From assembly GCA_027925225.1 (NCBI GenBank), contig AP027131.1:60001-92000 (forward strand): 32,000 bases of DNA. The letters are read 5' to 3'. This document shows, piece after piece, positions 2,723 through 24,816 of the stretch. Under the pieces are notes generated by a model. That model made no database searches and had not been told where the DNA came from. It saw only the letters and a list, made by a program, of their open reading frames with translations. Position numbers and translations under genes: made by a program. Source of the stretch: Candidatus Saccharimonadota bacterium (lineage in GTDB: Bacteria; Bacillota_I; Bacilli_A; Mycoplasmatales; Hepatoplasmataceae). Positions within the stretch are counted from its first letter, which is position 1. Each line of letters begins with the position of its first letter.

Positions 2723-4339
2723 ATGAATGTAGAAAGTAAAAAAACAATAATAGATAATCAAAAAAATGCACATAGATACGGTCTTTTATCAATGCTTGCT
2801 TTAATTATAGGAATTGTAATAGGTTCTGGAATTTATGTTGTTAATGACCAGCTTTATAAAGATTCAAATGGTTCTACAGGTATTTCAATGATTGCTTGAA
2901 TTGTTGTTTCTTTAATTGTTTTATTTATGCTTATTTCTTTTATAGAGGTTTCCTCAATAACATCTAAAAAACATGAAGCAGGAACAGTAAACAATTGAAG
3001 CAGACATCTTTGGGGTGAAAATATTTCTAAATATGTTGGTATTTTTTTCCCAATTATTTATTATCCTGTTTTACTTACTGGTTTTTCTCTAATTATGTCT
3101 ACTGAACTTATGAGTAATGTTAATAGTTTTGATTCTCTTGACTCCAAGAATGAAACTTGAATGTATTTTATTTATGTTTCTATAATTGCTTTTATAGTTT
3201 TAAATCTTATTTTTGGTTTAAATACATTTACTTCAAAACCAGGGAAAAACCTTCAAGAAATTGGTACTTTTATTAAATTAATTCCACTTTTTTTAATTGT
3301 AATAGTAGGATTTATTGCAATTGTTGGTTTAATGAATGCCCCTCCAGCAAATGATGTATTTGATACAACTCAAACTACTGGAGATGATAATGTTTTTAAA
3401 CTTATATTAATACTTTCTCCTACTGTTATGTTTTCTTATGATGGTTTTCTTTTTGCTGCATCTTTACAAAATGAGGCAAAGAAAAAATCAACATTTAAAA
3501 CAGCAGCAATTACAGGTGTGGTATTTATTATTTTAATTTACATTTTAATGTCATTTTTTACATTTGCTTATGGTGATCCTACTACTGGTGATTATTCGGT
3601 AAATGGAGCTTTTCATAATTTATTTCCTAATGTAGGAAATTGGTTCTTTACTTTAATTTCAGTAATTATTGTAATTTCAGTAATTACTGGAATTTCTGGT
3701 AATACAATAACGCAGGGACGTATGATTGCCGATGTTTCGGTCGAAAATCAAATTGCTGATAAAAATGGTAATTTAATTGCAAGAAATAAAGCTTTTGTAC
3801 CACAAAAATCAGTACAAATAGGTTGAATACTTTCAATAATTACTTTTGTTATTTTTACGTTTTTAGATGCTTTTTCAACAATGGCTTATTTAAAAGATTA
3901 TTCTCCAGATATAATTTATAGTCCAAATGCAGTAATGTCTAATGCACTTAATGATTTAGTTCTTATTGCTTTTGCTTTTTATGCTTTTATTATTGTTGGA
4001 GGATTATTTAACAGATGAACAGGAAGGGTTGAAGTTGATAAAAATAAATTGTTTATTCCTTCAGCAATAATTTCAAGTATTGCAATTGTTGTAATATTAA
4101 TTGTTTTTGCAATTGATATTTTTTCTCCGAACGATTTAAATAATCATGCATACAATTTATATAACTACATTCTACAAATAGTTATCTTTGTGACTGTTAT
4201 TGCTTTAATAATATCAGTTCCACTTTATTTACAAAAAGATGTTAAAAAACTTACAAAAGAGGAAAAGAAAAATAAAAGAAAACTTATTATAGCTTACAAT
4301 AGACAAAAAATAGATCCTAGATATAAAAATAAAAAATAA
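2723..4339 (+). CDS. Amino acid permease, APC superfamily (538 aa)
   Basis: ATG at 2723 gives MNVESKK...YGLLSMLALIIGIVIGSGIYV, the APC N-terminal signature. ORF-track pieces 3161-3826 and 4049-4339 are in the same frame, joined through TGA codons. The protein is multi-TM throughout and ends at TAA 4337-4339. Confidence 0.8.
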
Positions 4340-4377
4340 AAAATTTAATATAAAATATTTTATTTTTTTTAAATTAA

Positions 4378-5490
4378 TTAATGAAATCTTTTATTTTGAA
4401 TTCCTTTTGAAAATAATGCTAATAATAAAAACATTAATATATAAAAATATTGTAAAAGAAAATATATATTATAAAAATTATAAGAAACTTTAGTGTTTGG
4501 TTCGTTTGGATCTATAACATAAGACGTTGAATCTCAATGAAAAATATGTGGTAAAAACATTTCGTTAATTGTTAATGTGCTTGTATCAATTAATACATTA
4601 TTAATATAATATGTTGTTGTGTCTGAATTAAGATTTGTACTATTTAATGATGTTATAAGTATTGATTGTAAAGCAAAAAATGGATAAAATATTGCAAGAA
4701 TTAAATATGGAACATCTGCTTTGGCATATCTAAGACCAATGCTAATATTTAAAGTTGAATTAGAGAAATTATAATAAAACTGATTTGGAATTTCTTTTAA
4801 ATATAAAATATTATTATCACTGCTGTATGTATAAGTTATATTTGGTATACAAAAATTAATTTTTATAATTAAGAGATTCATTATTAAAAATACAAAAAAT
4901 ATAAAAAGCATTAAGATAAAAAAAGTTTTTATAGTTTTTGTTATATTTTCTATAAAAAAACATATTGACATTATAATAATCGAAATTAATAATATACTAT
5001 AATACAATCAAAAATAATTAATTTTATTTAAATCAAAATTAAAAAATAAATAATCATTTGGTGCATAATCTTTAAAATCATTAACCTTATTATCAACAAC
5101 TGCTCCAGCTATTACAATCCCATAAATAAAAAATGTTAAAAGAATTACATTTAAAATAATTGATGAATAATTTTTTAATTGATATTTATTTTCTCCTCTT
5201 ATTCTTTCATATATGTTAGATTTTTTCAAATTATAAATAAATAAACCATAATTAAATATAAAGAAAAGAATTATACTTGTAACTACAATTAATGAATACA
5301 TTTCAAAAAAATTAAATGTATTTACTGATATAAAAATTATTATAAATAAAAAAATAAAAAATAATAATTGTTTTCACGAACACATTCTTCTAAAATATAA
5401 AATAAAAAAAGCAGAAAAATTAGTTTTCTCATTTTCAATATTTTCATAATTATTTTTATTTAAAATTTTTTTTTGAGATTTTATTTCCAT
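4378..5490 (-). CDS. Multi-pass membrane protein, paralog A of a 3-copy family (function unknown), immediately downstream of the Csn2-position ATPase
   Basis: ATG at 5490 (MEIKSQKKILNKNNYENIENEK...). Track ORFs 5008-5301 and 4534-5007 are in frame, separated by TGA. The TGA at 4534-4536 also reads through to TAA at 4378-4380, adding a last hydrophobic helix (IYFLLQYFYILMFLLLALF). 370 aa with 7-8 hydrophobic segments. Confidence 0.75.
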
Positions 5491-5552
5491 ATTTTTTTAA
5501 AATTTTTTATTGTATATATTAATTTTAAAAAAATTTGTATATATTTTTATAA

Positions 5553-6653
5553 TTATATTTTTATCTCTTCATAATAATTTTTTAGTCAACTTGTAAATTT
5601 AATTTCATTAAATTTAATTTCATTAATAACTAAAAAAAGAATAAATTTAAATTTCTCATTTTCTGTGAGCATATCAATATTTCCATAAAATTCAAATGTT
5701 TTCAAATTAATGTTTCTAAGCAAATAAGGAAGAGTTATTTCCATAAAATCCTTTTCTATTTTTTTGAAGTCATTTTTTTCAATTAAATTATAAATTTCAT
5801 CAATTTTGATTTTAAAATCTCTTATATGATTTATATTAATTTTTCAAAAATTATTGTTTGACAATAAATAATAATTAATTAAAAAATCTTTATTTATAAA
5901 GAATTTTTTAATTTTTCTTTCTGAATTTGAAAGATAAAAAAATTCATTAACATTAATATTTAAATATTTTGTAAGGGCGGGATTTCTTAATGTAATAATT
6001 ATTAAATTATTTTTTGCAAGATTGTTTATTAATTCAGAAAGTTTTTTTATTTCTACTGGATCAAGATATGTTTCTGGACAATCAAAAATAAAAATTTTAT
6101 TTTTTGATTCTAATTCAATAATTAAATTTATATATATATTTAATTTTTCTGATTTAGATAATCATTTTTCTTCTATTTCTTCATTTTGTTTATCAAAAAT
6201 AGCAATTTTAAATAATAACTCAAGAATTTCAGAATCATTTTTAAAATTAAGTTTAGGATTTAAATGATAATTATTATTTTCAAATTTAATATATTTGTTC
6301 ATTGTTTCAAGAATTAAATTTAATATTTCGTTATTTTTTAAAATATTTGTTAAATCAATATTTTTTTCTTCTAATGTTTCCAAAATATGTTTAAAGATAA
6401 TTTTTCTTAAAATAGAGGTTTTTTTAAGTTCCAATTCTTTTTTTAAATCTCATTCTTCTGCAATATAAATTATTTCTCTTTTTTCATCATATTCTCGTTC
6501 TGAAAATACCTCTCTTTTTTTATTTTGTATTAATGAAATAAAATCATTTACAAAAGTTGTCTTCCCAGAATTATTTTCCCCATAAATAGCCATTATGTTA
6601 TTTTCGGTTTTAATTTTTAAATTATTATATTTATCATTTAAATAAATTTCCAT
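5553..6653 (-). CDS. ABC/SMC-type P-loop ATPase in the csn2 position (Csn2-like, motifs intact), 366 aa
   Basis: Hand-translated codon by codon from 6653 to 5553; only TGA interrupts the frame. Walker A is GENNSGKTT, the ABC-signature-like motif is LSKSEK, and Walker B is KIFIFDCPETYLDP, followed by NLIIITLRNP (His-loop position). It lies 83 nt downstream of cas2 on the same strand. Confidence 0.65.
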
Positions 6654-6736
6654 TATAAATTTATAATTCCTTTATTTAAAAAAATTATAAATGTAAAAAA
6701 CAGATTAAATCTTAATTATTGTTTTAAAATTATTTT

Positions 6737-7076
6737 TTAAATAATGATTAATGGTTCATCAGTTTGATAGTATTCTTTATTTTTTTTATTTCCCCTTATT
6801 ATTTCAATTTCCTCATATTGTTTATTTGTTATTACTAATAATCTAATATCTCCTTCAGGAGGCAAAATGTTATTAATTTTTTCTTTTGTTCTTTTTACTC
6901 AATCGTGATTATAACAATGTTTTAAATATACAGATTCTTGAATCATTATAAAACCAAGTTTTATTAATTCATTTCTAAATTTGTTCATATCAGATTGATT
7001 TTTTTTGCTTGTTGTTGGTAAGTCGTAAAATAAAAGTATTTTCATTTGTCTAAACTGAGTCTTTAATTTATCCATT
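6737..7076 (-). CDS. cas2: CRISPR-associated Cas2, apparently disrupted by a 1-nt frameshift after codon 8 of the MKILLFYD start
   Basis: ATG at 7046 (or 7076) gives MKILLFYD and then runs into TAG. The next frame reads LPTTSKKNQSDMNKFRNELIKLGFIMIQESVYLKHCYNHDWVKRTKEKINNILPPEGDIRLLVITNKQYEEIEIIRG...PLIII, ending at TAA 6737-6739. Joined, the two pieces match the type II Cas2 pattern (xxILLxFDxPT...FRKxLxxxGFxMxQxSVY). The start and stop frames differ by one nucleotide. Confidence 0.75.
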
Positions 7077-7096
7077 TTTTATTATTTTATCATTTA

Positions 7097-8200
7097 TTAA
7101 TTTATTTTCTTTTTATTAATTTTTCTTGAAATTAATGCTAATACTAAAAATAATAATATATAAAAATATGTTAATATGAAATATATATTATAAGCTGCAT
7201 AAGACATTTTAACATTGGGCTCTTCTAAAGTTCTTATATAAGATGTTGAATCTCAATGAAATAAATGAGGAATAAATAATTCATTTATTGTTGTTGTATC
7301 TGTATTTAAGACAACATTTCCAATATCGTATGTGTTACCCGGAAGAAGGGTGGTGTTATTAAAAGAGGTAATAAGAATTGATTGCAATGCAAAAAATGGA
7401 TAAAATATTGCTACAAATAAATACGGCACATCATAATTAGAAGCATTAAGACTCATACTTACATTTAAAGTATCACTGTTAATATCATAATAAATAAAGT
7501 TTTCAATTTCTCTGATATGTATTAAAGAGGTTGGATCATTTTCTACTGGATATGTTAGAATATTTGGCTTACAAAATTGTATTTTTATAAGTACAAGATC
7601 CATTATTAAATATATAAGAACAATTACAAACATTGTTATGAAAAAGTTTTTTACTGTTTTTGTAATATTTTCAACAAAAAAGCAAACTAACATAATAATT
7701 ATAGAAATTAATAACACACTATAATATAATCAAAAAAAATTAATTTCACTAAATTCAAAAGAATATACTAAAAAACCACCAGATTCATATTTAAAATCAT
7801 GAATCTGATTATCGACAACTGCACCTATTATTAATATTATGTAAATAAATAAGGTTAAAATAATTACATTTAAAATAATAGATGAATAATTTTTAAGTTG
7901 ATATTTTTTTTCTTCTCTTATCCTGGAATAAATATTTGATTTTTTTAAGTTATAAATAAATAATCCATAATTAAATGTAAAAAATAAAATAATACTTATT
8001 ACTGAAATAACAGAATACATTTCATAAAAATTTATTGTACTTATAGCAATAAAAATTATCATAAAAACAAAAAAATAAAATAGTAACTGTTTTCAGGAAC
8101 ACATTTTTTTAAAATAAAGCACAAAAAAAGCATAAAAGCTTAAATTTTTGTTTTCTTTTTTATTATTTATATTATTTTTAGTAAGATTCATACTTTGCAT
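7097..8200 (-). CDS. Multi-pass membrane protein, paralog B of the 3-copy family, located between cas1 and cas2
   Basis: ATG at 8200 (MQSMNLTKNNINNKKENKNLSFYAFF...). Track ORFs 7730-8062 and 7253-7717 are in frame. The TGA at 7253-7255 reads through to TAA at 7097-7099. 367 aa with the shared motifs FYPFFALQSILITS and PHLFHW. Confidence 0.75.
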
Positions 8201-8284
8201 TTAAGCAAGTTTAAATATTAAGAGTTTTGTTCGAGGTTTAAAATAAACTAATTATTTTTAAATTATATTTTATAAATCATTTTT

Positions 8285-9208
8285 TTAAAAATCTTCATTT
8301 TTATTGAAAGATATTTTTGGCAACATTAATTCTTTTTCATTATTTTTAAAGTATGAAATAATAGATTTTATAGTTATATCTATTGCATGTCTTACTTTTG
8401 TTATCTGATTATTTATTATTACATTTTGATCCAAAACAGAAACTAATTTAGCTCTCATTATTAAACTTATTGTTTCATCTTTTTCATTCAATAAAATTTC
8501 ATTATTTTCTACTATAATAAAATCTAATAGTGGTCTATAAGGTTCTATTAAGTCATAAGTAAGATTAAAATAATTATTTGCTGTTTTATGAAAAAAACCA
8601 AGAGAAGGATGAAGACCTGCTTTTACAATAGCACTTGAAATTTTACTTGCTAAAACTTTATATCCATAATTCATTGATTTGTTTATTGCATTATCTTGAA
8701 ATCTTATAAAACCCGAACCAAAAAGAGATATAAAATATAATCTAGCAGCCGATGATTCTCTATTTCTTTTATCTCCTTGAATTACATCATTATGATAGTT
8801 ATCCATTTTTTCTATGTTTATTTTTGAGGAGCCTAAATATTGCATTAATATTTTTTGGTTTTCTATTTTTTGTTTGATTATTTGTTGTTGAAATTTATCT
8901 TTTTCTCTTTGATTTAATTCTAATTGTAAATTAAAGTTTTGTAAAGGTTTGTGGTGACCATGAAGTGCTAATAGCAATCCTACTGGGTCATGAGATAAAT
9001 TATTTATCATAAGAGGAATATTTCTATTTGTAAGTTCAATTAGAGTTTGTATTGTTATATTTGTTTTGTAGTTATCAATAATAATAATCCCAATATCATC
9101 TAAATAAATTGGAATATTTTCTTCATTTTCCATTCCTCTTATAATTAGACTATTATTTTTTATTTTAATATTTTGATCAGTTTGTATAAAAACTGTTCTT
9201 CAATTCAT
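8285..9208 (-). CDS. cas1: CRISPR-associated integrase Cas1, type II (307 aa)
   Basis: The true start is ATG at 9208, giving MNWRTVFIQTDQNIKIKNNSLIIRG... (type II Cas1 N-terminus; the W is a TGA codon). It continues into track ORF 8285-9133, with NRESSAARLYF, GYKVLASKISSAIVKAGLHPSLGFFH and LTYDLIEPYRPLLD. Confidence 0.92.
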
Positions 9209-9327
9209 ATTTTAAAATTCCTTTTACAATTTATGAATTACATTTTTAATTTTTATCAAAATAATTATATAAAATAAGATATTATGTTTTTGATAATAAG
9301 TGATATATTCAATGAGAGGTGTTTTAA

Positions 9328-9639
9328 ATGAAAAAATTAATTATAGATGATGTAACTTTTAAAATTAAAAATGAAGAAGAAAAAGAAGATCTTATTAGAA
9401 TAATTAAAGAAATAAAAAGCAAATTAAAAGAATCTAATAATCTTCCTTCAAAAATATCTTTATTTAGAGATATTGATAAAGATAAAGATGTTTTTAAATT
9501 TTATATGGTATTTGATTCTGATGAAGATTTTGACAAATGAGATGCAAAAGTGACTCAAGAAGTAAAAGATCTTTTTATAAAAGGTTTACATAAATATTAT
9601 GTAAAATATAATTATTCAGAAAAAATTGATATTGATTAA
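9328..9639 (+). CDS. Small charged protein, family P copy 1 (103 aa, unknown function)
   Basis: SD-like GAGAGG precedes the ATG at 9328. The TGA at 9538-9540 reads as Trp (..DEDFDKWDAKV..). TAA at 9637-9639. Paralogous to 9677, 10032, 11755 and 12123. Confidence 0.7.
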
Positions 9640-9676
9640 TTTAAAAAAAATAATAAATTAAATAACAGGTGTTTAA

Positions 9677-9994
9677 ATGAAAAAAATAGTTATAGAAGAT
9701 ATGACTTTTAAAATTGAAAATAAAGAAGAAGAAAAAAATTTTATTGAAGGAATTCAAAAAATGAAAAAAATTTTAAAGGAATCATATGATATTCCTGCGA
9801 AATTTTCTTTATTTAAAAATGTTTATAAAAATAAAAATATTTTTAAACTTCATTTAGTATTCGAATCTGAAGAAGTTTATAGTGAATTTATTGCAAAAAT
9901 TTCTCAAGAAGATAGAGAAAAATTTAATGATTATTTGGGTAAATATGAAATAAAATATAGCCGTTTAGAAAAAAATGATATTAATAATTTTTAA
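9677..9994 (+). CDS. Small charged protein, family P copy 2 (105 aa)
   Basis: Intact ORF, MKKIVIEDMTFKIENKEEEKNF... It shares the family N-terminal and central motifs (PAKFSLFKN...IFKLHLVFESEE). Its C-terminus is the most divergent of the family. Confidence 0.7.
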   Translation: MKKIVIEDMTFKIENKEEEKNFIEGIQKMKKILKESYDIPAKFSLFKNVYKNKNIFKLHLVFESEEVYSEFIAKISQEDREKFNDYLGKYEIKYSRLEKNDINNF

Positions 9995-10031
9995 TAAAAA
10001 ATAGCAATATATTAAATGCAAAGGAGTTTAA

Positions 10032-10343
10032 ATGAAAAAATTAATCATAGAAGACATAACTTTTAAAATTGAAAATAAAGAAGAAGAAAAAAATTTTATT
10101 GATTGAATTAAAAAAATGAAAAAAGATTTAAAAGAATCAAATAATCTCCCTACAAAATTTTCTTTGTTTAGAGATATTGATAAAGATAAAGATATTTTTA
10201 AACTTTATTTAGTATTTGATTCTGATGAAGATTTTGACAAATGAGATGCAAAAGTACCTCAAAAAAATAAAGATGATTTTAGAAATGAGTTAGGTAAATA
10301 TTTTGTAAAATATAATTACTCAGAAAAAATTGATATTGATTAA
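10032..10343 (+). CDS. Small charged protein, family P copy 3 (103 aa)
   Basis: AAGGAG SD, then ATG at 10032. Two in-frame TGA codons (Trp). It ends ...KYNYSEKIDID with TAA at 10341-10343. Missed by the standard-code ORF track. Confidence 0.7.
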
Positions 10344-10356
10344 TATTTATAAAAAA

Positions 10357-10385
10357 AATACTGTTAAAACAGTATTTTTTATTTT
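10357..10385 (+). terminator. Rho-independent terminator after the P1-P3 cluster (shared with convergent membrane paralog C)
   Basis: AATACTG-TTAAAA-CAGTATT hairpin followed by a T-run, with an A-run upstream, so it could act in both directions. Confidence 0.55.
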
Positions 10386-11473
10386 ATGTTATTTTTATTA
10401 ATTTTTCTTGAAATTAATGCCAATACTAAAAATAGCAATATATAAAAATATGTTAATATAAAATATATGTTATAAGCTAAATAAGACATTTTAATATTAG
10501 ATTCATTGAAATCTGGGTTGTAAAGATTTAAATTTCAATGAAATAAATGAGGAAAAAATAATTCATTTATTACTGTATTATTGTTTAGCATAGTATTTCC
10601 AATATAATATGTTTTATCTGGAATTAGGCTAGTGTTATTAAGAGAAGTTATAAGAATTGATTGCAATGCAAAAAAAGGATAAAATATTGTACATATTAAA
10701 TATGGCACTTCTTCTTTTTGCGTATTAAGAGCAATACTTACATTTAAAGCATTATTTGAAGCATCATAATATAAATAATTATCAATTTCTTTAAAAGTCA
10801 CTTTATTTGTTTCACTATCTACTGCATCAACTATTATGCTTGGTCTACAAAATGAAATTTTTATAAATACAAGATCCATTATTAAATATATAAAAACAAT
10901 AGCAAACATTATTATGAAAAAATTTTTTACTGTTTTTGTAATATTTTCAACAAAAAAGCAAACTAACATAATAATTATTGAAATTAATAAAACACTATAA
11001 TATAATCAAAAAAAGTTAATTTCACTAAAAACAAAGGAAAATGTTAAATAATTACTAGTTTCTGGTTTAAAATCATTGATTGTATTATCAATAACAGCTC
11101 CTAAAATTATTATTAAATAAATAAATATTGTTAAAATGATTACATTTAAAATTATCGAAGAATAATTTTTAAGATGATATTTTTCTTCTCCTCTTATTTT
11201 AGAATAGATATTTGATTTTTTTAAATTGTAGATAAACAAACCATAATTAAATGTAAAAAACAAAATTATGCTTATTACAATAACTATTGAATACATTTCA
11301 TAAAAATTCAATGTGCTTATAGAAATATAAATTATTAAAAAAACAAAAAAATAAAATAACATTTGTTTTCAAGAACACATTTTTTTAAAATAAAGTGTAA
11401 AAAAACAAAAAAAGCTTAAATTTTTATTTTCTTTTTTATTATTTATATTATTTTTAATTTTTATATTATTCAT
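10379..11473 (-). CDS. Multi-pass membrane protein, paralog C of the 3-copy family
   Basis: ATG at 11473 (MNNIKIKNNINNKKENKNLSFFCFF...). Track ORFs 11006-11362 and 10535-10969 are in frame. The TGA at 10535-10537 reads through to TAA at 10379-10381. 364 aa. Confidence 0.75.
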
Positions 11474-11689
11474 ATTTTGTGTTTAATTATTAAATTTTTT
11501 TCTAATTTTAAATATAATGTTATTTTTTTACTGATTATATTTTATAAGTTTGTTTTTTAAATAAAGATTTTTTATTTTAATAATCTAATTAATTTTATAA
11601 TATTATTTTTAAATTTATAAAATCCTTTTCTAGAAATTAAAAGTTTTTTAAAAAAACATAAAAAACCTAAATGTGAATTTAAAAGTGAT

Positions 11690-11743
11690 ATATAAAAATA
11701 CATTTTAAAATATAATTATGTAGAAAAAATTGATATTGATTAA
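11690..11743 (+). pseudogene. 3' fragment of a sixth family-P gene
   Basis: Reads ...KYILKYNYVEKIDID-TAA (stop at 11741-11743), matching the conserved family C-terminus (KYNYSEKIDID). No upstream coding part remains. Confidence 0.5.
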
Positions 11744-11754
11744 TAGGAGGAAAA

Positions 11755-12063
11755 ATGCAAAAATTTTATAATTTTGAAATTACATTTAAAGTTAATAAAA
11801 TAGATCAAACAGATTTTTTAAAAAATTTAAAAACAATTAAAAATGAATTAACTAATAAAAATGTTTTGCCAATTTATATAACATTATTTAAAAATATTGA
11901 TAAAAATAAAGATTTTTTTACAATATATTTAGGTTTTATGAGTGATAAAGGTTTTGATGAATGAAAGAAAAATGTTCCTCAAGAGTTAAAAAATATATAC
12001 AATAATAATTTAAAAAAATATGTTATTAAAACAGACCACAAAGAACAACAAAGCATTGACTAA
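11755..12063 (+). CDS. Small charged protein, family P copy 4 (102 aa, most divergent N-terminus)
   Basis: AGGAGG SD, then ATG at 11755. One in-frame TGA (..GFDEWKKNVPQE..). TAA at 12061-12063. Confidence 0.65.
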
Positions 12064-12122
12064 TTAAATAAAATATAAAATATTAAATTTATTTATGAAA
12101 TATATTTTTTATGGAGTTTAAA

Positions 12123-12434
12123 ATGAAAAAATTAATTATAGATGATGTAACTTACAAAATTGAAAAAGAAGAAGATCAAAAAGCTTTTATTGAAAAAATG
12201 AAAGAAGTAAAAAGTAAATTAAAAAAAATTAACTTACTTCCTACTAAATTTTCTTTATATAGAGATATCGATAAAGATAAAGATACTTTTAAGCTTTATA
12301 TGGTATTTGATTCTGATGAAGATTTTGATAAATGAGATGAAAAATTTCCTCAAGAAATTAGAGATATCTTTATAAATTATTTTCGTAAATATCTTATAAA
12401 ATATAATTATTCAGAAGAAATTGATATTGATTAA
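12123..12434 (+). CDS. Small charged protein, family P copy 5 (103 aa)
   Basis: GGAG SD, then ATG at 12123 (MKKLIIDDVTYKIEKEED...). The track start at 12111 is less likely. The TGA at 12333-12335 reads as Trp. TAA at 12432-12434. Confidence 0.7.
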
Positions 12435-12454
12435 TTAATTATTTAATTATAAAA

Positions 12455-12478
12455 AATACTGCTAAAGCAGTATTTTTT
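12455..12478 (+). terminator. Rho-independent terminator after P4-P5
   Basis: AATACTGC-TAAA-GCAGTATT followed by a T-run. It is a near copy of the terminator at 10357-10385. Confidence 0.55.
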
Positions 12479-12520
12479 ATATAAAAATCAATTAGCTAAA
12501 ACCAATCAATTAACCAAAAC
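12479..12520 (-). repeat. Orphan CRISPR-repeat remnants (two tandem partial repeats, no spacer)
   Basis: TATAAAAATCAATTAGCTAAAAC followed by CAATCAATTAACCAAAAC. The second contains 16 nt (ATCAATTAACCAAAAC) identical to the 3' part of the plus-strand array repeat. Orientation is the same as the array. Confidence 0.6.
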
Positions 12521-12603
12521 ATATTTTAAGTATATTTAATAGGTTTATATAATTTTTCATTTTTTTTGTTTAAGTTTATATTTATTTTAGGGAGATAAAT
12601 ATT

Positions 12604-12747
12604 ATGGAAAAAGAAAACCATAAACATCAATTTAAATGCGAACACTGTGGACATGAATATAAAAGCAAATATGAAGAAAAAGAGTGCCCTGAGTGCGGAG
12701 CAATGAATCAATGCAAAATAAAAGATGAAGAAAATAAAGAGATTTAA
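12604..12747 (+). CDS. 47-aa zinc-ribbon mini-protein (CxxC...CxxC)
   Basis: GGGAG SD lies 8 nt upstream of the ATG at 12604. Sequence MEKENHKHQFKCEHCGHEYKSKYEEKECPECGAMNQCKIKDEENKEI, with TAA at 12745-12747 and a hairpin terminator following. Confidence 0.5.
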   Translation: MEKENHKHQFKCEHCGHEYKSKYEEKECPECGAMNQCKIKDEENKEI

Positions 12748-12765
12748 ATATCTCTTTATTTTTTA
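12736..12765 (+). terminator. Hairpin terminator between the zinc-ribbon gene and the convergent aldolase
   Basis: AAAGAGAT-TTAAAT-ATCTCTTT followed by ATTTTTT. Confidence 0.45.
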
Positions 12766-12771
12766 TAAAAA

Positions 12772-13629
12772 TTATTTTAATCAATTTTTATTATCGGCAC
12801 CAACTGCTTTTATTTTTTCTTTTGCAATTTCTTTTGCTTTATTTATCCCAACTTGAAAGATTTTTCTTAAATCAAATGCTTCAGGATTTTTATCCATATA
12901 TTCTAAAATTCCAGAGATAATAGCTTTTTTAAGTTCGCTATCAAAATTAGCTTTTCTAATTCCTGCACTTACAGCTTTGCTGATTTGCTCTAATGGAATT
13001 CCAGTTCCGCCATGCAGTACTAGAGGAACTTTTCCTTTGCTAGAAATTTCTTTTATTAAATCAAAATTAATTTTTGGTTCTTTGCAATAAAAACCATGAC
13101 TAGTTCCACAAGCAATTGCTAACATATCAATATTAGTATTATCAATAAATTTTATTGCATCTTCTACTTTTGTAAAATGATCATTATCTTCTTCTATATC
13201 ATCTTCTTTTCCGCCAATTATTCCAATTTCCGCTTCTAATGTTATATTTTCATTTTTAATAAGATTTCTAACTTTGTTTGTAATTTCAATATTTTCTTTA
13301 AATGACAATGTAGACCCATCAATCATTAATGATGTATAACCAAGCTCAAGTGATTTCTGATGATATTTAATATCGCGTCCATGATCTAAATGAACAGCAA
13401 CAGGAATTTTTGCTTTCTTTGCACAAGCAATAATAATTGCCGCTAACTCTTCGTGTCCAGCATAATTTATTCCTCCCTCGGTTGTTTGTAAAATAATTGG
13501 AGCATTTAATTCTTCTGCAGCAAGAATTGCAGCTTTTGCTCCTTCTAAATTTACGACTCCAAAAGCAGGAACTGCATATTTATTTTTTATTGCATCTTTT
13601 AATAAAATTTTTCCACCTACAAGGGGCAT
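12772..13629 (-). CDS. fba: Class II ketose-bisphosphate aldolase (fructose- or tagatose-1,6-bisphosphate aldolase family), 285 aa
   Basis: MPLVGGKILLKDAIKNKYAVPAFGVVNLE..., PVAVHLDHG and PLVLHGGTGIP. The track stop at 12781-12783 is TGA, so the protein runs 2 more codons past that Trp codon to TAA at 12772-12774. Substrate specificity cannot be decided from sequence alone. Confidence 0.85.
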
Positions 13630-13824: not shown

Positions 13825-14898
13825 ATGACGAAAGAGCTATTATTTTTTTCTTCTGGAAATACAAAAACAGAAGTTAAGAAAATTGACGATAAAAAAAAGA
13901 TTCCCAAAAATGAGCGTGATTCTTTTATTGATTTTAGTAGATTTTTTCATCCATCTAAATGATCATCTGAAGATTTTACATTGTATTCAATGATTGTTTT
14001 CATTATAATTCTACTTTTAATTTCTATAGTTAATATAGTCCTTTTTGGTTTGGGGTTTGATGCCAGTAATCAATCGGCTTTTGGGAAAACAATTAATGGA
14101 AAAGAAGGAATAGTATTGGAGGATGGTTTTTCAAAAACTAACGGTTTTTATATTGTTTCTTGAATTTTATTATTTTTATCATTAATTGCGTCTGTTTTTC
14201 AATTTATGTCCAATATCTTTTTAATTAAATTTTCAAAAAGATTTATTTGATGAAATCAAATTTCTATGTTTTCATTTTTACTTATAGATATTGTTTATGG
14301 AGCATGATGAATTGCAATTTCACAAATTATTGGACTTGTTCTTGGACAACAACGTTATTTTGCATGAGATAAACAAGATAAAAAAACAGATATTGATCCA
14401 TATAAATCACAACTTAATATTAAATGATTAGTAATTGTGGGGGGGGTTGCAGTTGTTTTTGTTCTTGCTTCTGTTTTACTAATTACACCAACAATATTTA
14501 CAGATAATAAAGAATTTTATACATATGTTGAAGGTACACCATCAGATATACCAAATGATGTAGATGTTATAGAAAGTACTATTCATCAATCTGGTAATTT
14601 TACAACATATGGTTATACTGTAGAGTCTGGACTACTTTATGATGTTGCTCCTTGATGAGATATGGTAGTAGGAATTTTTCAAGTTTCAGGATTAATTCTG
14701 CTTACACGTAAAACATATTGAGCATGAATTTCATTTGAAGTAGCTATGGCAGCACAAATGGTTGTTTACTTTGAAGCAGGAAATTTAATTCTTTCAATTC
14801 AAAGTATTCTATTATTTATTTCTAATTTATTACCACTTTACTACTGATTTACAATGAACAAAAAATCAGCAAGAAAAGCAAAACAAGGTATAGCTTAA
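13825..14898 (+). CDS. Multi-pass membrane protein, tentatively PnuC-like (riboside transporter family), 357 aa
   Basis: AAAGGAGG SD, then ATG at 13825. Track ORFs 13981 and 14437 are in frame, joined by many TGA codons. It is Trp-rich with a two-repeat TM organisation, and the C-terminal LTRKTYWAWISFEV...LLPLYYWF resembles PnuC. Family assignment is from memory only. Confidence 0.45.
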
Positions 14899-16944: not shown

Positions 16945-17040
16945 TATTTCATTTAATTATAAATATCAATTAACTAAAACACATTATTCACAAAGTGTTA
17001 TTTATAAATATCAATTAACTAAAACACATTATAAATATAC
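16945..17040 (-). repeat. Degenerate CRISPR repeats detached from the main array
   Basis: 16945-16980 (TATTTCATTTAATTATAAATATCAATTAACTAAAAC) matches about 29 of 36 repeat positions. 17003-17025 (TATAAATATCAATTAACTAAAAC) is a 23-nt partial repeat. The core TATAAATAT recurs at 17030-17038. Confidence 0.7.
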
Positions 17041-20316: not shown

Positions 20317-20324
20317 ACCTTAAA

Positions 20325-20330
20325 ATTATA
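20325..20330 (-). promoter_or_regulatory. Candidate -10 box (TATAAT) in the 32-nt leader between the cas9 stop and the first repeat
   Basis: The minus strand reads AATGAGACTTTTTTTTATTATAATTTTAAGGT and then the repeat. The TATAAT lies about 8 nt before the first repeat. No convincing -35 element. Confidence 0.3.
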
Positions 20331-20348
20331 ATAAAAAAAAGTCTCATT

Positions 20349-23300
20349 TTATGAGATTTTTCCAAGTAAGTTTATATTTAAAATATTTATTTTTTTAATT
20401 ATATTTTTAGAATATTGTGGTCAATAATTAAAATTTTTATTAAATTTAATTGCATTTCCATAATATAAATTAGGATGTGAAATTAATAAAACCCTTGCAT
20501 TACTAGCAACTCCATTATATTTATAAATTTCAAATTCATTATTAATTTTAAAAATTACATTTCTATTAATTAATGTTTTAATTTTTCCTTCATTAACTTG
20601 ATGTTTAAATATTGCTTCTAATTTAAAATTTTCATTAAATCTAAAACCATAATATGATCTTATATCTCAAATATTATTTTTATTATCTTTTATAAAACCT
20701 TTTTTTAATTTTCCTTCTTCAAAAGAATCTTTATGATTAACTGGATTTTCACTTCCTAAGAAGTTTCCTCTTACTTTTTTGTTTATTTTATAAGAAACAA
20801 TTGGATAATCTCTTTCAGATTTATTATTTAATTTTGCCCAATCTTTTATATCAATTATTTTTTCAAATTTTGGTTCTAAAAAAGTTTTCTTTTTTATTTC
20901 TTTTTCCTCTTCGATTAATTTTATTGGAATTAAATTATTTACTATTTTAGGAAAATTTTTTATTAATGGTTTTATGCTTTTTGAAGCAAAATTATTTTTA
21001 TAAATACTAACTCTTATTAATTTATCAAGATTTGAAGCATAATTTATTAATGAATTTGAACTTATTGTAATTACATTTTCAAAAAAATCATTTTTATATT
21101 CTTTATTAAAGTTATTTTTTCTAAGCTGTTCAATAATTACTTTTTTCTGTTTTTCTAAGTTTTCATATATTTCATTTTTTGTTAATATATTGTTTTTTTT
21201 ATATTCATCAATTAATCAATTGTAATAATCAAAAATTCTAATAATTGATTGATAAAATTCAATATGTTGTTTTGAAATCATATTTATTAAAATCATTGCA
21301 TCAACCGCGTGATGGAATGGACTTATATCTCTTGGTTTACTTTCATGTCCTCAAAGACTTCCATCATATTCAAATGGTTTAAGTCAAAGCTTTCTAAATT
21401 TAGATGTTATTCCACCTTGAACAGTTAATATTTCTGGTTTTTTTTCTTTTGTTATTTTTGAAAATCTGTCAAACTCCAAATCAAAATATCCTTGAATGTA
21501 TTTTGTTATATAACGAGTATCATTGATATTTCTTGATTCAAAACCAGATTCAATTGATCTATTTATATTTTCTTTTAATAAATATTCTAGTTTAGTTGTA
21601 TTTTTATTTTTATAGAATTTAATTATTTCTTTTTTTCAATTTTCAATTTTTTTCTTTTCTATTCCGTTTTTTTCAAAGTAATCAAGAGGTGTTAAATTTT
21701 TTTTTAAATTATTATCTTTTTTTGTAGTAATAATTTTATTATTATTTGTATTGTCATTATATTGTGAATAGGGAATAATATGATCAACATCATAATTTAT
21801 TCTATTAACAAAAAAATCTTTTAAAAGAATTTTTTCTTTAAGATTAATATCATAAATATTTATTGCATAATCTTCTTTTATTGCATCTTTTGTAATTTGT
21901 TGTTGCTTAAAGAGAAAATAATTACTTATATTTGTTGGGCTTGGATTTATTCCATTTTTTATTAATATTTCTTCAGCTTTTTTTCTTCCTTCTTCGTTTT
22001 TATCTTGTCTTGCTTTAACATCTTTTCTAACTTTCTCTTCCGCATAAAGATCTTTTGCAACTTCAATTATTATTTTGTCAAATTTATTAAATTTTTCAAA
22101 TAATTTTCTTACAACTTTTCTTGTTTGATTTATTGACCTAAAAACAACAGCATTTTTTACCATGTCTGGATCATTTATTCTTTTTAAAAATTCATCTTTT
22201 GTTAATTTAAATTTTTTTATTTTTTCTTCATTATTTTTTTTATTTAATTCACTTTCATATTTCTGTCTTAAAATACCATTATTAATTTGTTTTGAAAGAG
22301 AATCTAAAATAAATTTTGAAGAAGTGTTTAATGTTTTGTGTCCTTTTGTTATTCATTTTTCATTTTTCCTTAATCAATCGTACCCATCATTTTTATCTTT
22401 AAAAAAATCATCTATTTTTATTAATGCATTTTTTAATTTTTCTGGAGTTTTTATTTCTGAAAGAGTTTTGCCAATTTTATTAATTTTATTTGTAGTTATT
22501 GTTGATAAATTTTCTAAATTAATTTTTTTAATATGCTCTTTTAAAAATAAATTATTATCTTTTATTGAATTAAATTTAACTAAAAATAATTGTGCGTTTT
22601 CAAAACTAATTCCATCCATTTTTGGAATTTCAAGATTATTTTCTTTTAATAAATCTGTTACAAAATTTCTTTTAAATTCAATTTTGTCAAAATAATTTAA
22701 AATTATTTTTTTTGTTAAATTTTTAATTAATTCTTCTGTTAAATTATTTTCTTTATTACTTTTTTCATTTTCTAAAATTTTTGAAAATAATTTAGAAGTT
22801 TCACTTGTTATAAAAGAGAGATCACCTTCTATTGAAAAATTAGAAATTCTTTTTTCATTTGGATAGAATTGGCAATTTCCTATCATAGCTGTAAAAGGTT
22901 CATAAAAAAAACTTTTTGAATCTTTTTTCATTTTATTTTTTCAATTTTCAAGAATTTCTTTATCTTTTGGACCTGGCCCATCTTCAAAAAAACGTTGTCT
23001 AAAAATTGTATTTTTTATTTTTGTTTTTAGATTATCAAATATAGGATTAAATTCTATTTGTTTTTCTATTAGTGCTATATATTCTCTTTCATAATCTTCT
23101 CTTTTAAACAATAATTGGTGTTCTTCATAAAATTTTATTTTTTCTTTTTCTAATTCAGTTTTTTCTTTTTTTCCAAGAATATCCTTATTTATTTTTTTAC
23201 TACGATACATAAATTTTTCAGGTTGATCAAAAGAAAAGTGTTTATCTTCTATAATAGCTTTTATTGGATAATTATATTTTTCAATTAATCCTTTAGCTCT

Positions 23301-23798
23301 TTCTAAAGAATTTCTATCATCCTTGTCTTGAGTAGAATTTGGAATAATAAAAGCATTATTATATCCCCTTCTTTTAGCAATGTGCACTAAAGCAATAAGT
23401 AATTGAAGATTTGTTAATTTCTCATTTAATCCTTTATAACGGAGTAATAGTGGATTAATATTTTTATTATTAGAATACTCACCTTTTTCTTTAGTTTTTT
23501 TAATGTGTTCTTCATATTCTTCTTTTGTTATTAAATTATTGCTGTAAAATATTTTTTTTAAATCTTCTATTCTTTGCTTTCTTCTATCTGTTAATCTTCT
23601 TTGAGATCTAAAACCTCTTCTTTTATAAGCATTTGTCTCAAGGGTTTTTGAATCTTCTGGTGCATCTCAAATTCTTACTCCAAAATCATCAATTTCAAGA
23701 TTTGGTTCATTATTTTCTTCATCATAAGAATATGTTCCTACTGCTCACCCTAAAGATGTAACCCCTATATCAAGTCCTAAAATTTTTTCTTTTTTCAT
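20349..23798 (-). CDS. cas9: Cas9 endonuclease, 1149 aa, catalytic motifs intact
   Basis: The ATG at 23798 gives MKKEKILGLDIGVTSLGWAVG (RuvC-I, Asp10). Also IIIEVAKD (RuvC-II), NYDVDHIIPYSQ (HNH, His codon at 21780-21782) and PFHHAVDAM (RuvC-III, 21300-21320). Track fragments 22941-23387, 22374-22931 and 21636-22163 and the C-terminal region are all in one frame, separated by TGA. TAA at 20349-20351. Confidence 0.95.
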
Positions 23799-23940: not shown

Positions 23941-24125
23941 GAACTATCTAGTTTATTTGTTTATAAATGTCAATTAACCAAAACAAAAATTCATCTGTTT
24001 ATAAATATCAATTAGCCAAGATAGTGATTTACTTGAGATTTGATTATAAATTTCAAGGGACATCTTAGGGTACCCAGGTAACCCTGTAATCCCCCTGGTT
24101 GAGCATCTTTTGATGCTCTTTTTAT
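23941..24125 (+). ncRNA. tracrRNA (primary transcript about 185 nt) with two tandem anti-repeats, stem-loops and an intrinsic terminator
   Basis: Anti-repeat A (23949-23984) and anti-repeat B (23987-24022) both align without gaps to the plus-strand repeat, so both are complementary to the crRNA repeat. A 9-bp stem follows at 24033-24056 (TTGAGATTT/AAATTTCAA), then GC-rich stems at 24067-24098 and the terminator GAGCATC-TTTT-GATGCTC plus T-run at 24101-24125. It is divergent from cas9, as in many type II loci. Confidence 0.8.
24101..24125 (+). terminator. Intrinsic terminator of the tracrRNA
   Basis: A perfect 7-bp stem GAGCATC/GATGCTC with loop TTTT, followed by TTTTTATTTT. Confidence 0.75.
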
Positions 24126-24126
24126 T

Positions 24127-24816
24127 TTATTTATTTTTTAACTTTTTGTTTAATAATAGACTTTTTTTCAAAAAAACTATAAATAAAATAATAGAGCTTA
24201 AACCAATAATTGCATTTCTTTCAAAAATTAGAAATGCTTCTTTTGACATTCCTGGAGAAATACATAACAAAGAAATCATAAAAATAAAACTCATAACAAT
24301 TAAAAAAGCAATTATTAAATAATAGACTTTTATTTGTTTAAATTTAAAAAAAGAAATTATCGATAAAGATGCAATGCTAAATAATATCGAAAAAACCCAA
24401 GCAAGAATTACTTCTTTAAATTGGCTATCATTGTTATACGATCCTTTAAAAGTTATAAGTATTGAAGAAAGTAAAATAAGATGAAAAATAATAAAAATTA
24501 ATGAAATTACAAATGCTTTAAGATTTCTTTTTTCTTTGAATAAATTAAGTTTTTCCAAAAATATATATGTGTATGTAAAAAACAAAGTAAATCATATATT
24601 TAAAAGTAATAAAACATACATTCATTTATCTCTTATTAGAATAAAATTATCTTCATTATTTTTATCAGCAAAAGTAGCAAGTGTTTTTATATTAAAATAA
24701 AATGTCATTAAAAGTAAAAATGATGAAACAAAAAGGATTAAATTTTTTATGCAAAATGTTTTTTTAAAATAAAAAAACATAATACTAAAATTTTCTTTTA
24801 ATTTCTTATTATTCAT
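24127..24816 (-). CDS. Hypothetical multi-pass membrane protein (229 aa)
   Basis: Track ORFs 24622-24816 and 24127-24585 are in frame, joined through two TGA codons. Hydrophobic throughout. No family recognised. Confidence 0.55.

Follow-up and report, generated by a model that had tools for sequence, protein, structure and literature searches.

We have analysed three paralogous genes for a membrane protein, designated A, B and C, that lie among and near the cas1, cas2 and csn2 genes of a type II CRISPR locus. They are found in a stretch of 32,000 nucleotides (nt), referred to here as the window, of the genome of Candidatus Hepatoplasma vulgare Av-JP, a Mollicute of the isopod gut with 23% G+C that uses genetic code 4 (TGA read as Trp). 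The explanation that we favour, with a probability of about 0.65, is that A, B and C constitute a lineage-specific family of ABC-2-permease-like membrane proteins that was locally duplicated into the intergenic gaps between the cas genes, and not a part of the CRISPR adaptation machinery. The three genes are paralogs and are under purifying selection, the family has a very narrow distribution, the cas locus of the nearest outgroup is syntenic with the window, and the position of the membrane genes relative to cas changes between strains.

4378..5490, minus strand: paralog A (HPAVJP_0610, BDV02172.1), six-transmembrane (six-TM) membrane protein of 370 amino acids (aa), between csn2 and a convergent amino-acid permease gene
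5553..6653, minus strand: csn2 (HPAVJP_0620, BDV02173.1), 366 aa, a Csn2 subfamily with an ABC/SMC-like ATPase fold
6737..7075, minus strand: cas2 (BDV02174.1), 112 aa (PF09827, E 1.9e-16; TIGR01573, E 4e-20)
7097..8200, minus strand: paralog B (HPAVJP_0640, BDV02175.1), 367 aa, occupying the gap between cas1 and cas2
8285..9208, minus strand: cas1 (BDV02176.1), 307 aa, type II (TIGR03639, E 2.6e-71)
10379..11473, minus strand: paralog C (HPAVJP_0690), 364 aa, without an adjoining cas gene and with a small-protein family on its flanks

The original prediction, which was made from the nucleotide sequence of the window, had described the three genes as code-4 paralogs of 364-370 aa on the minus strand, and the open reading frames (ORFs) were recovered exactly and intact. 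Each of them contains three TGA codons and no TGG codon. The proteins A and B are 62% identical, A and C 61%, and B and C 73%, and the motifs reported as invariant, FYPFFALQSILITS and PH(I/L)FHW, are indeed unchanged in all three translations. The neighbours are likewise real cas genes, as supported by the profiles TIGR03639 for cas1 and TIGR01573 for cas2 and by the PADLOC profile for Csn2. The distances from the cas1 stop to the start of B (84 nt) and from the csn2 stop to the start of A (62 nt) were as reported, whereas the distance from the stop of B to the cas2 ATG is 21 nt and not 20.

In Kawato 2024 (PMC10928387), Cas1, Cas2 and Csn2 are listed as BDV02176, BDV02174 and BDV02173, respectively. 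The number skipped in that list, BDV02175, is paralog B. No comment on this intervening gene (BDV02175.1) was found in the available parts of Leclercq 2014 (PMC3942034) or Kawato 2024 (PMC10928387).

The family and the cas operon in related lineages

The family is exceedingly small. A word-indexed search of 5.8 billion proteins returned only A, B and C and one further protein, P0004 (41% identical). When 1.84 billion cluster representatives were scanned exhaustively with HMMER, two matches were obtained at E <= 1e-10 and seven at E <= 1e-3, which added five relatives that are weak but full-length-like (E 3e-7 to 6e-4). Family pattern scans of the GTDB species genomes, the JGI metagenomes and IMG/VR gave no relatives, and comparison of A, B and C with PHROGs, Pfam and NCBIfam gave no match. 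The number of copies in the various lineages is zero, one (elsewhere in the genome), at least two, or three. Unannotated genes of 361 aa close to csn2 in H. scabrum and in a crinochetorum-like metagenome contig were considered as family members and rejected by profile search. A phage origin was dropped as well, because tblastn against phages and the PHROGs comparison gave nothing for B and for the small-protein family around C.

P0004 is encoded in the outgroup sample SRR24015491, where it is the single copy of the family, and it is closer to paralog A (43% identity) than to the other two copies. Its gene lies between the genes for ComEC and an amino-acid permease, without a cas gene within 8-10 kb and on a contig different from that of the csn2/cas locus. 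The cas locus of the same sample (L006) shows synteny with the window, the order being SecA, permease, csn2, cas2, cas1, ..., rpsL, rpsG, fusA, tuf, with identities of 66% for Csn2, 77% for Cas2 and 74% for SecA. In this locus cas1, cas2 and csn2 are contiguous, with gaps of only 4 and 19 nt, and there is no family member. The same contiguous arrangement without a family member is found in H. scabrum (L007) and in the crinochetorum-like metagenome contig (L008), and a truncated contig (L009) shows a cas1 fragment, cas2 and csn2 in one row, again free of the family. In total, cas1 and cas2 lie together without a membrane gene in four related lineages, and in three of these the contiguity includes csn2.

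The closest strain, ERR14127475 (about 83% DNA identity), does contain family members near its cas genes, albeit at another position. Here cas1 and cas2 are adjacent, 27 nt apart (contig locus L012), and some 59 nt past cas2 a gene starts that resembles the N-terminus of the family. In a second contig locus (L010) a B-like gene (67% aa identity), present with its 3' two-thirds, ends 81 nt upstream of csn2, and past csn2 there is a further start that resembles the family. The flanking sequences correspond to both halves of the cas2-csn2 spacer of the window (6736-6706 and 6691-6654), and therefore the copy of ERR14127475 occupies the cas2-csn2 gap instead of the cas1-cas2 gap. Copy C is missing from this strain, as are four of the five small-protein genes. 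Accordingly, the position of the family inside the cas operon is not conserved: it is present near cas only in the window strain and in ERR14127475, in different spacers, and conserved co-occurrence with cas1, cas2 and csn2 across independent lineages was not found, the family being absent from L006-L009.

The original prediction had put forward a CRISPR-associated membrane component that acts together with Cas1, Cas2 and Csn2, for instance by anchoring spacer capture to the membrane or as an abortive or exclusion effector, and it had proposed to score the co-occurrence of the family with these genes. The orientation along the cas strand speaks for such a component, as do the operon-like gaps of 84, 21 and 62 nt, the gap between B and cas2 without a terminator, the copies within the adaptation operon of two strains, and the fact that every copy is intact and under purifying selection. 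When the co-occurrence was scored, however, the linkage turned out not to be kept across the relatives, an outcome that counts against the component by the refuting condition of the original prediction itself. The gene is missing from the contiguous cas1-cas2 pair (three times extending through csn2) of the four related loci, the single copy of the outgroup is found far from cas genes, the position in the operon differs between close strains, copy C adjoins no cas gene, and each copy carries an upstream region of its own. Moreover, A, B and C match none of the PADLOC families (0) or any other cas or defence profile. A dedicated role in the adaptation operon is thus very unlikely. The distribution of the family and the synteny of the relatives support what had been the fallback of the original prediction, namely an unrelated membrane family that has colonised the locus.

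The duplicated unit and the selection on its copies

The homology between the copies is not restricted to the coding sequences. In a self-BLASTN comparison of the window, 4374-5561 aligned with 10379-11543 at 73% and 7092-8289 with 10374-11561 at 80.6% over 1208 nt, and 4355-5458 also aligned with 7074-8180. The homology spans from about 85 nt 5' of the ATG to about 20 nt 3' of the stop codon, and therefore each copy brought its own upstream region.

5491..5561, minus strand: region upstream of A, made up of the 62-nt spacer and the csn2 stop; belongs to the duplicated unit, with homology to the upstream region of C
8201..8289, minus strand: region upstream of B, with TTTAAA-16-TATAAT at 8289-8262; homologous to the region upstream of C
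11474..11561, minus strand: region upstream of C, with TTTAAA-16-TATAAT at 11561-11534

The claim that each copy has its own -10 box stands in part. The TATAAT at 8267-8262 exists and recurs homologously upstream of C, but in this DNA of 77% A+T promoter-like matches are near the shuffled background (120 observed versus 101 +/- 8.7) and the box is, for that reason, not evidence by itself. No terminator-like site was found between B and cas2. The region 4000-13000 has only two such sites, one of which lies inside the coding sequence of paralog B (7809-7778, minus strand, a stem of 12 bp with a T-run after it).

Every copy is intact, and the ratio of nonsynonymous to synonymous substitution rates (dN/dS), 0.32-0.35 overall, shows purifying selection. 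For the TM and cytoplasmic parts the ratio is 0.19-0.26 and for the predicted outer loops 0.45-0.70. The synonymous divergence (dS) is 0.48 between B and C and 0.8-0.86 between A and either of them. For csn2 the value between the window and L010 is 0.49, and for the cas genes between the window and L006 it is 0.74-0.86.

These data suggest the following course of events. A single ancestral copy, situated elsewhere in the nearest outgroup, would have come to adjoin csn2 in the H. vulgare lineage. It would then have been copied locally in units of about 1.2 kb (some 85 nt upstream, the ORF and some 20 nt downstream), which landed in the short gaps of the cas1-cas2-csn2 operon. Tandem duplication of segments such as [cas2-csn2-A] or [csn2-A], with subsequent loss of the cas copies that had become redundant, would be the most likely route; the first segment would give the order of the window and the second that of ERR14127475. 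A transposon-like cassette was considered too. It is unsupported, since alignments of the junctions of all three copies with the empty sites of L006 revealed neither target-site duplications nor terminal inverted repeats at the filled sites.

The pattern of variation also bears on another possibility, in which A, B and C would be contingency genes for surface-exposed proteins that are phase-variable or diversify quickly and that interact with host or phage. They would not be transporters, and their location near cas would be incidental. Copy number (zero, one, at least two, three) and position indeed vary among close lineages, and the outer loops evolve fastest, with a dN/dS of up to 0.70 versus 0.19 elsewhere. 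In addition, both membrane-gene starts of ERR14127475 have an (AC)n tract with a length of 10-12 units or more (L012 at about 10415-10442, L010 at about 2030-2055). The tracts start 4-5 codons past the putative ATG, giving MKIEN(TH)n and MKLR(TH)n, and may represent a phase-variable simple-sequence repeat. In Mollicutes, repeats of the (AC)n type act as on-off switches of genes. The Hepatoplasmataceae are noted in PMC10928387 for tandem families of surface-type proteins that are specific to the species. On the other hand, dN/dS stays below 1 everywhere, the paralogs of the window have no (AC)n repeat, and the tracts of ERR14127475 are located at contig ends and are possibly assembly-related. 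Moreover, the cytoplasmic loops and TM helices are the most conserved parts, as for a protein with a conserved intracellular partner. We consider a surface-protein nature to be rather unlikely.

Relation to ABC-2 permeases and to Csn2

The favoured explanation includes an assignment of the proteins to a likely fold class. The original prediction had recognised no family and had counted 7-8 hydrophobic segments per protein. An AlphaFold2 model built from a 9-sequence alignment, of low confidence (predicted local distance difference test score, pLDDT, 55.6; predicted template-modelling score, pTM, 0.52), replaces this count by an amphipathic N-terminal helix (H22-33), six long TM helices and two short outer-loop helices. 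The latter (H260-266 and H270-280) belong to a beta-rich outer region between TM5 and TM6 and carry the invariant FYPFFALQSILITS. In the same low-confidence model the N- and C-termini are predicted to be cytoplasmic, and both ends and the TM2-TM3 loop are basic. The most conserved stretch of the family, FNYGLFIYNLKKSNIY, corresponds to the basic cytoplasmic loop after TM2, the outer loops being the variable parts. In ABC-2 transporters the position after TM2 holds the helix that couples to the ATPase. The model shares further features of ABC-2 topology, despite its low confidence: six TM helices, both ends inside, an N-terminal interface helix and short helices between TM5 and TM6.

The proposed check of the fold by AlphaFold and Foldseek pointed in the same direction without reaching significance. 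Foldseek found six matches in total in the PDB, all of them ABC-2-type membrane domains (KpsM, NosY, ABCA1), at a non-significant E of 2.7-8. The template-modelling scores were 0.45-0.52 per target for KpsM and NosY and 0.05 for ABCA1, and 0.21-0.39 per query, again all at E 2.7-8. Genomic context provided a second indication. The distant homologs P0010 and P0011 are encoded directly upstream of a 751-aa ABC ATPase with two nucleotide-binding domains (NBDs), several further paralogs surround the ATPase gene, and a profile made from A, B, C and P0004 alone scores the distant homologs beside the ATPase at 26-46 bits. A partner ABC ATPase gene in the operon is found only for these distant homologs, P0010 and P0011. 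Two relatives approach a curated family: P0008 matches the Pfam family ABC2_membrane at E 1.3e-4 (22.0 bits) and the paralog just downstream of the double ABC ATPase at E 4.8e-4 (20.2 bits), both below the cut-off of 26.9 bits.

Taken together, the family is probably ABC-2-permease-like, albeit very divergent, and a distant relative of the membrane subunit of ABC-2 (type V) transporters. Formal membership of the ABC-2 permeases is not established, as A, B, C and P0004 do not reach the curated Pfam score for PF01061 or PF12698. The earlier statement that no family could be recognised thus holds for curated families and can be sharpened: A, B and C are divergent, lineage-restricted kin of Mollicutes membrane proteins whose genes adjoin those of an ATPase. 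The proteins would have a transporter-type function, with an ATPase encoded outside the window.

Several observations weigh against the explanation that we favour. The ABC-2 assignment is made up of several weak signals, none of them significant (model pLDDT 55.6, Foldseek E 2.7-8). A, B, C and P0004 have no Pfam match even at E <= 5 and the first three none in NCBIfam, and searching PDB sequences with profiles from family alignments of 9 and 20 members gave only chance matches to LptC and rhodopsin. There is no transporter ATPase in the window, where Csn2 is the only ABC-like ATPase, and the closest relatives P0004 and P0005 are orphans as well, with no partner ATPase beside them. No junction signature proves any particular duplication mechanism, and the arrangement in ERR14127475 was assembled from two short contigs that both break at the (AC)n tract. 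Finally, in two strains copies are found within or next to the same cas operon, in the orientation of the cas genes, and B has no terminator before cas2, because of which co-transcription and some acquired functional link with cas may exist. Since B lacks a terminator, the region upstream of B may, judging from the sequence, contribute to the expression of cas2 and csn2, by promoter activity and read-through from B that would extend into these two genes.

The ATPase at the csn2 position had been presented as Csn2 by position, and it is a genuine one: the PADLOC Csn2 profile PDLC01597 matches residues 1-346 over profile positions 1-332 of 338 (E 8.6e-34; type II-A Csn2), consistent with the label in Kawato 2024. 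The order cas1-cas2-csn2 is kept in L006-L008 and the order cas2-csn2 in the truncated L009. A scan of the GTDB genomes with the Csn2 alignment returned H. scabrum only. In its AlphaFold2 model (pLDDT 75) the protein resembles foremost PtuA (Septu/retron), SMC heads and the NBDs of ABC transporters, and there were no solved Csn2 structures among the top 50 Foldseek matches. The Hepatoplasma proteins have an invariant Walker A motif (G-E/N-NNSGKT) and the signature LS-K/R-S/T-E (LSxSE). The Walker B motif is followed by C or S in place of the catalytic Glu, and the His of the H-loop is absent. Because these two residues are missing, the Hepatoplasma Csn2 probably binds nucleotide without hydrolysing it.

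It could be argued that the membrane proteins pair with this Csn2 as a transporter-like or membrane-anchored complex. The ABC/SMC-type fold with intact Walker A and signature motifs would suit such a pairing, the membrane genes are near csn2 in the window and on both sides of it in ERR14127475 (probable order: transmembrane domain, Csn2, transmembrane domain), and no other ATPase partner is seen in the window. Csn2 orthologs of the same subfamily nevertheless occur without membrane genes in four lineages, the outgroup has its copy and its csn2 on different contigs, the catalytic Glu and the H-loop His are missing, and the match to the standard type II-A Csn2 profile is full-length. The pairing is therefore extremely unlikely. 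The full-length profile match and the conservation of the gene without membrane genes in the relatives also led us to reject, as main reading, that the ATPase is a transporter NBD. Only a slim chance can be given to a variant in which an ABC-2-like protein was recruited in the H. vulgare lineage to the ABC-fold Csn2 and to Cas1-Cas2, where it would form a spacer-acquisition module tethered to the membrane or a membrane complex powered by Csn2.

The wider locus and comparison with known systems

The remaining elements of the locus are the following.

2723..4339, plus strand: amino-acid permease gene, convergent with A (PF13520, E 1.3e-39)
9328..10343, plus strand: s1-s3, three tandem copies of an acidic family of about 103 aa, between cas1 and C (Tandem Repeats Finder, period 355 x 3)
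11755..12434, plus strand: s4 and s5, two more copies of the family of about 103 aa
17380..20316, minus strand: CRISPR array with 45 repeats of 36 nt and 44 spacers
20349..23798, minus strand: cas9, 1149 aa, with a homolog in the H. scabrum locus L007

The order on the minus strand is cas9, array, unrelated genes, paralog C, cas1, paralog B, cas2, csn2 and paralog A, with the small-protein genes on the plus strand around C; past paralog A the convergent permease gene and then secA follow. The permease is 59.5% identical to that of L006 and 36% to that of L001, and the permease encoded beside the single family copy of the outgroup is a paralog of it. The distance between cas9 and cas1 is about 11 kb and includes the array and unrelated metabolic genes. 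The adaptation module as a whole is 8-11 kb off. About 8 kb of this, between the array and the adaptation side, is taken up by genes for a ROK kinase, two RpiB-like proteins, a membrane protein and a class II aldolase. The first repeat of the array follows the cas9 stop codon at only 32 nt (20317-20348). H. scabrum has a likewise split locus, with glycerol, phosphotransferase system and amylase genes between cas9 and cas1. Also the type II-A locus of Candidatus Hepatoplasma crinochetorum is, according to Leclercq 2014 (PMC3942034), scattered and interrupted by metabolic genes. In the syntenic outgroup locus L006 no cas9 homolog and no array were found within 10 kb. In that locus three unannotated ORFs occur between rpsL and cas1 (5675-8578), and a 96-aa ORF with the HNH-like motif HILPKEMGGKSKIENAIIL is located between csn2 and the permease gene (11213-11503).

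Several repeat-derived sequences are scattered over the window. A candidate anti-repeat of the trans-activating CRISPR RNA (tracrRNA), TTCATCTGTTTATAAATATCAATTAGCCAAG, is present at 23955-24100 on the plus strand, upstream of and divergent from cas9, and is preceded by a second, partial copy of the repeat. Degenerate repeat copies are found at 16953-17025 (plus strand), some 350 nt past the trailer end of the array, and two repeat-like 16-mers, ATCAATTAGCTAAAAC and ATCAATTAACCAAAAC, at 12486-12520 (plus strand), 5 kb away and beside s5. The degenerate copies and the 16-mers may be relics of an older position of the array. The 16-mers were rejected as tracrRNA, given that there is no stable RNA fold at that place (z = +1.86) and that the better anti-repeat is the one upstream of cas9. 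In a comparison of the CRISPR spacers with the window and the fetched loci, no full-length match was found among the matches listed.

The five small-protein copies around paralog C are 40-73% identical and are encoded on the strand opposite to C. The family gave no match in Pfam, PADLOC, PHROGs, PDB sequences or phages, and the closest strain ERR14127475 has one s4-like copy only (L012 7954-8259). Between this family and the aldolase gene lies an ORF of about 47 aa (at about 12604-12747, plus strand) with two CxxC pairs (CEHCGH...CPECGA), which is zinc-ribbon-like. Two further multi-pass membrane proteins without a family match are encoded in the window, and profile searches showed both to be unrelated to A, B and C. 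The first, of 229 aa (24127-24816, minus strand), is located just upstream of the tracrRNA/cas9 region, and the second, of 357 aa (13825-14898, plus strand), is kept in the closest strain (L012 4736-5809).

With these results a tiny, unannotated and fast-turning-over membrane family gains a likely fold class, that of the ABC-2-permease-like proteins. The locus also provides a natural case of unrelated genes that were, by the favoured explanation, duplicated into the spacers of cas1-cas2-csn2 while the cas genes stayed unbroken, and it calls for caution in the prediction of cas accessory genes through guilt by association in small, rearranging genomes. To our knowledge, no type II adaptation module has an established membrane-protein component. 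If a link to CRISPR were true, A, B and C would be the first integral membrane proteins to act as partners of such an operon, and the comparative evidence argues against it.

Several known systems resemble the genes of the window in one respect or another. Membrane proteins associated with CRISPR systems are CorA, Cam1 and Csx23 in type III and Csx27 and Csx28 in type VI-B, which are effector-side accessories conserved with their subtype across many lineages. They share with A, B and C that they are membrane proteins and that their genes adjoin cas genes in the same orientation. The same operon of relatives lacks A, B and C, however, which shift between spacers and match no defence profile. 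The scattered locus of H. crinochetorum (PMC3942034) and the re-annotation of Csn2 (PMC10928387) are in line with the window as regards the separation of cas9 and the array from cas1-cas2(-csn2) and the divergence of Csn2. The genomes treated in PMC3942034 and PMC10928387 differ in having cas1, cas2 and csn2 contiguous, copies of the membrane gene inside the operon occurring only in the H. vulgare lineage.

The ABC-2 (type V) permeases (PF01061 ABC2_membrane and PF12698 ABC2_membrane_3; structures are solved for KpsM, NosY, Wzm/TarG and the membrane domains of ABCA/ABCG) share with A, B and C a size of about 350 aa, six TM helices and both ends inside. In contrast, A, B and C have a larger beta-rich outer region, have no ATPase gene beside them and are confined to few Hepatoplasma strains, and they themselves lack a significant match in sequence or structure. 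Finally, Mollicutes contain tandem families of membrane and surface proteins, including the clusters of paralogs around the double-NBD ABC ATPase in the marine Mollicutes loci L002-L004. Such families resemble A, B and C in their local arrays, species-specific copy number and divergent outer loops, and also in the 5' simple-sequence repeat of one strain (ERR14127475). They differ in that A, B and C have no lipoprotein signal or repetitive ectodomain, whereas their TM core is well conserved.

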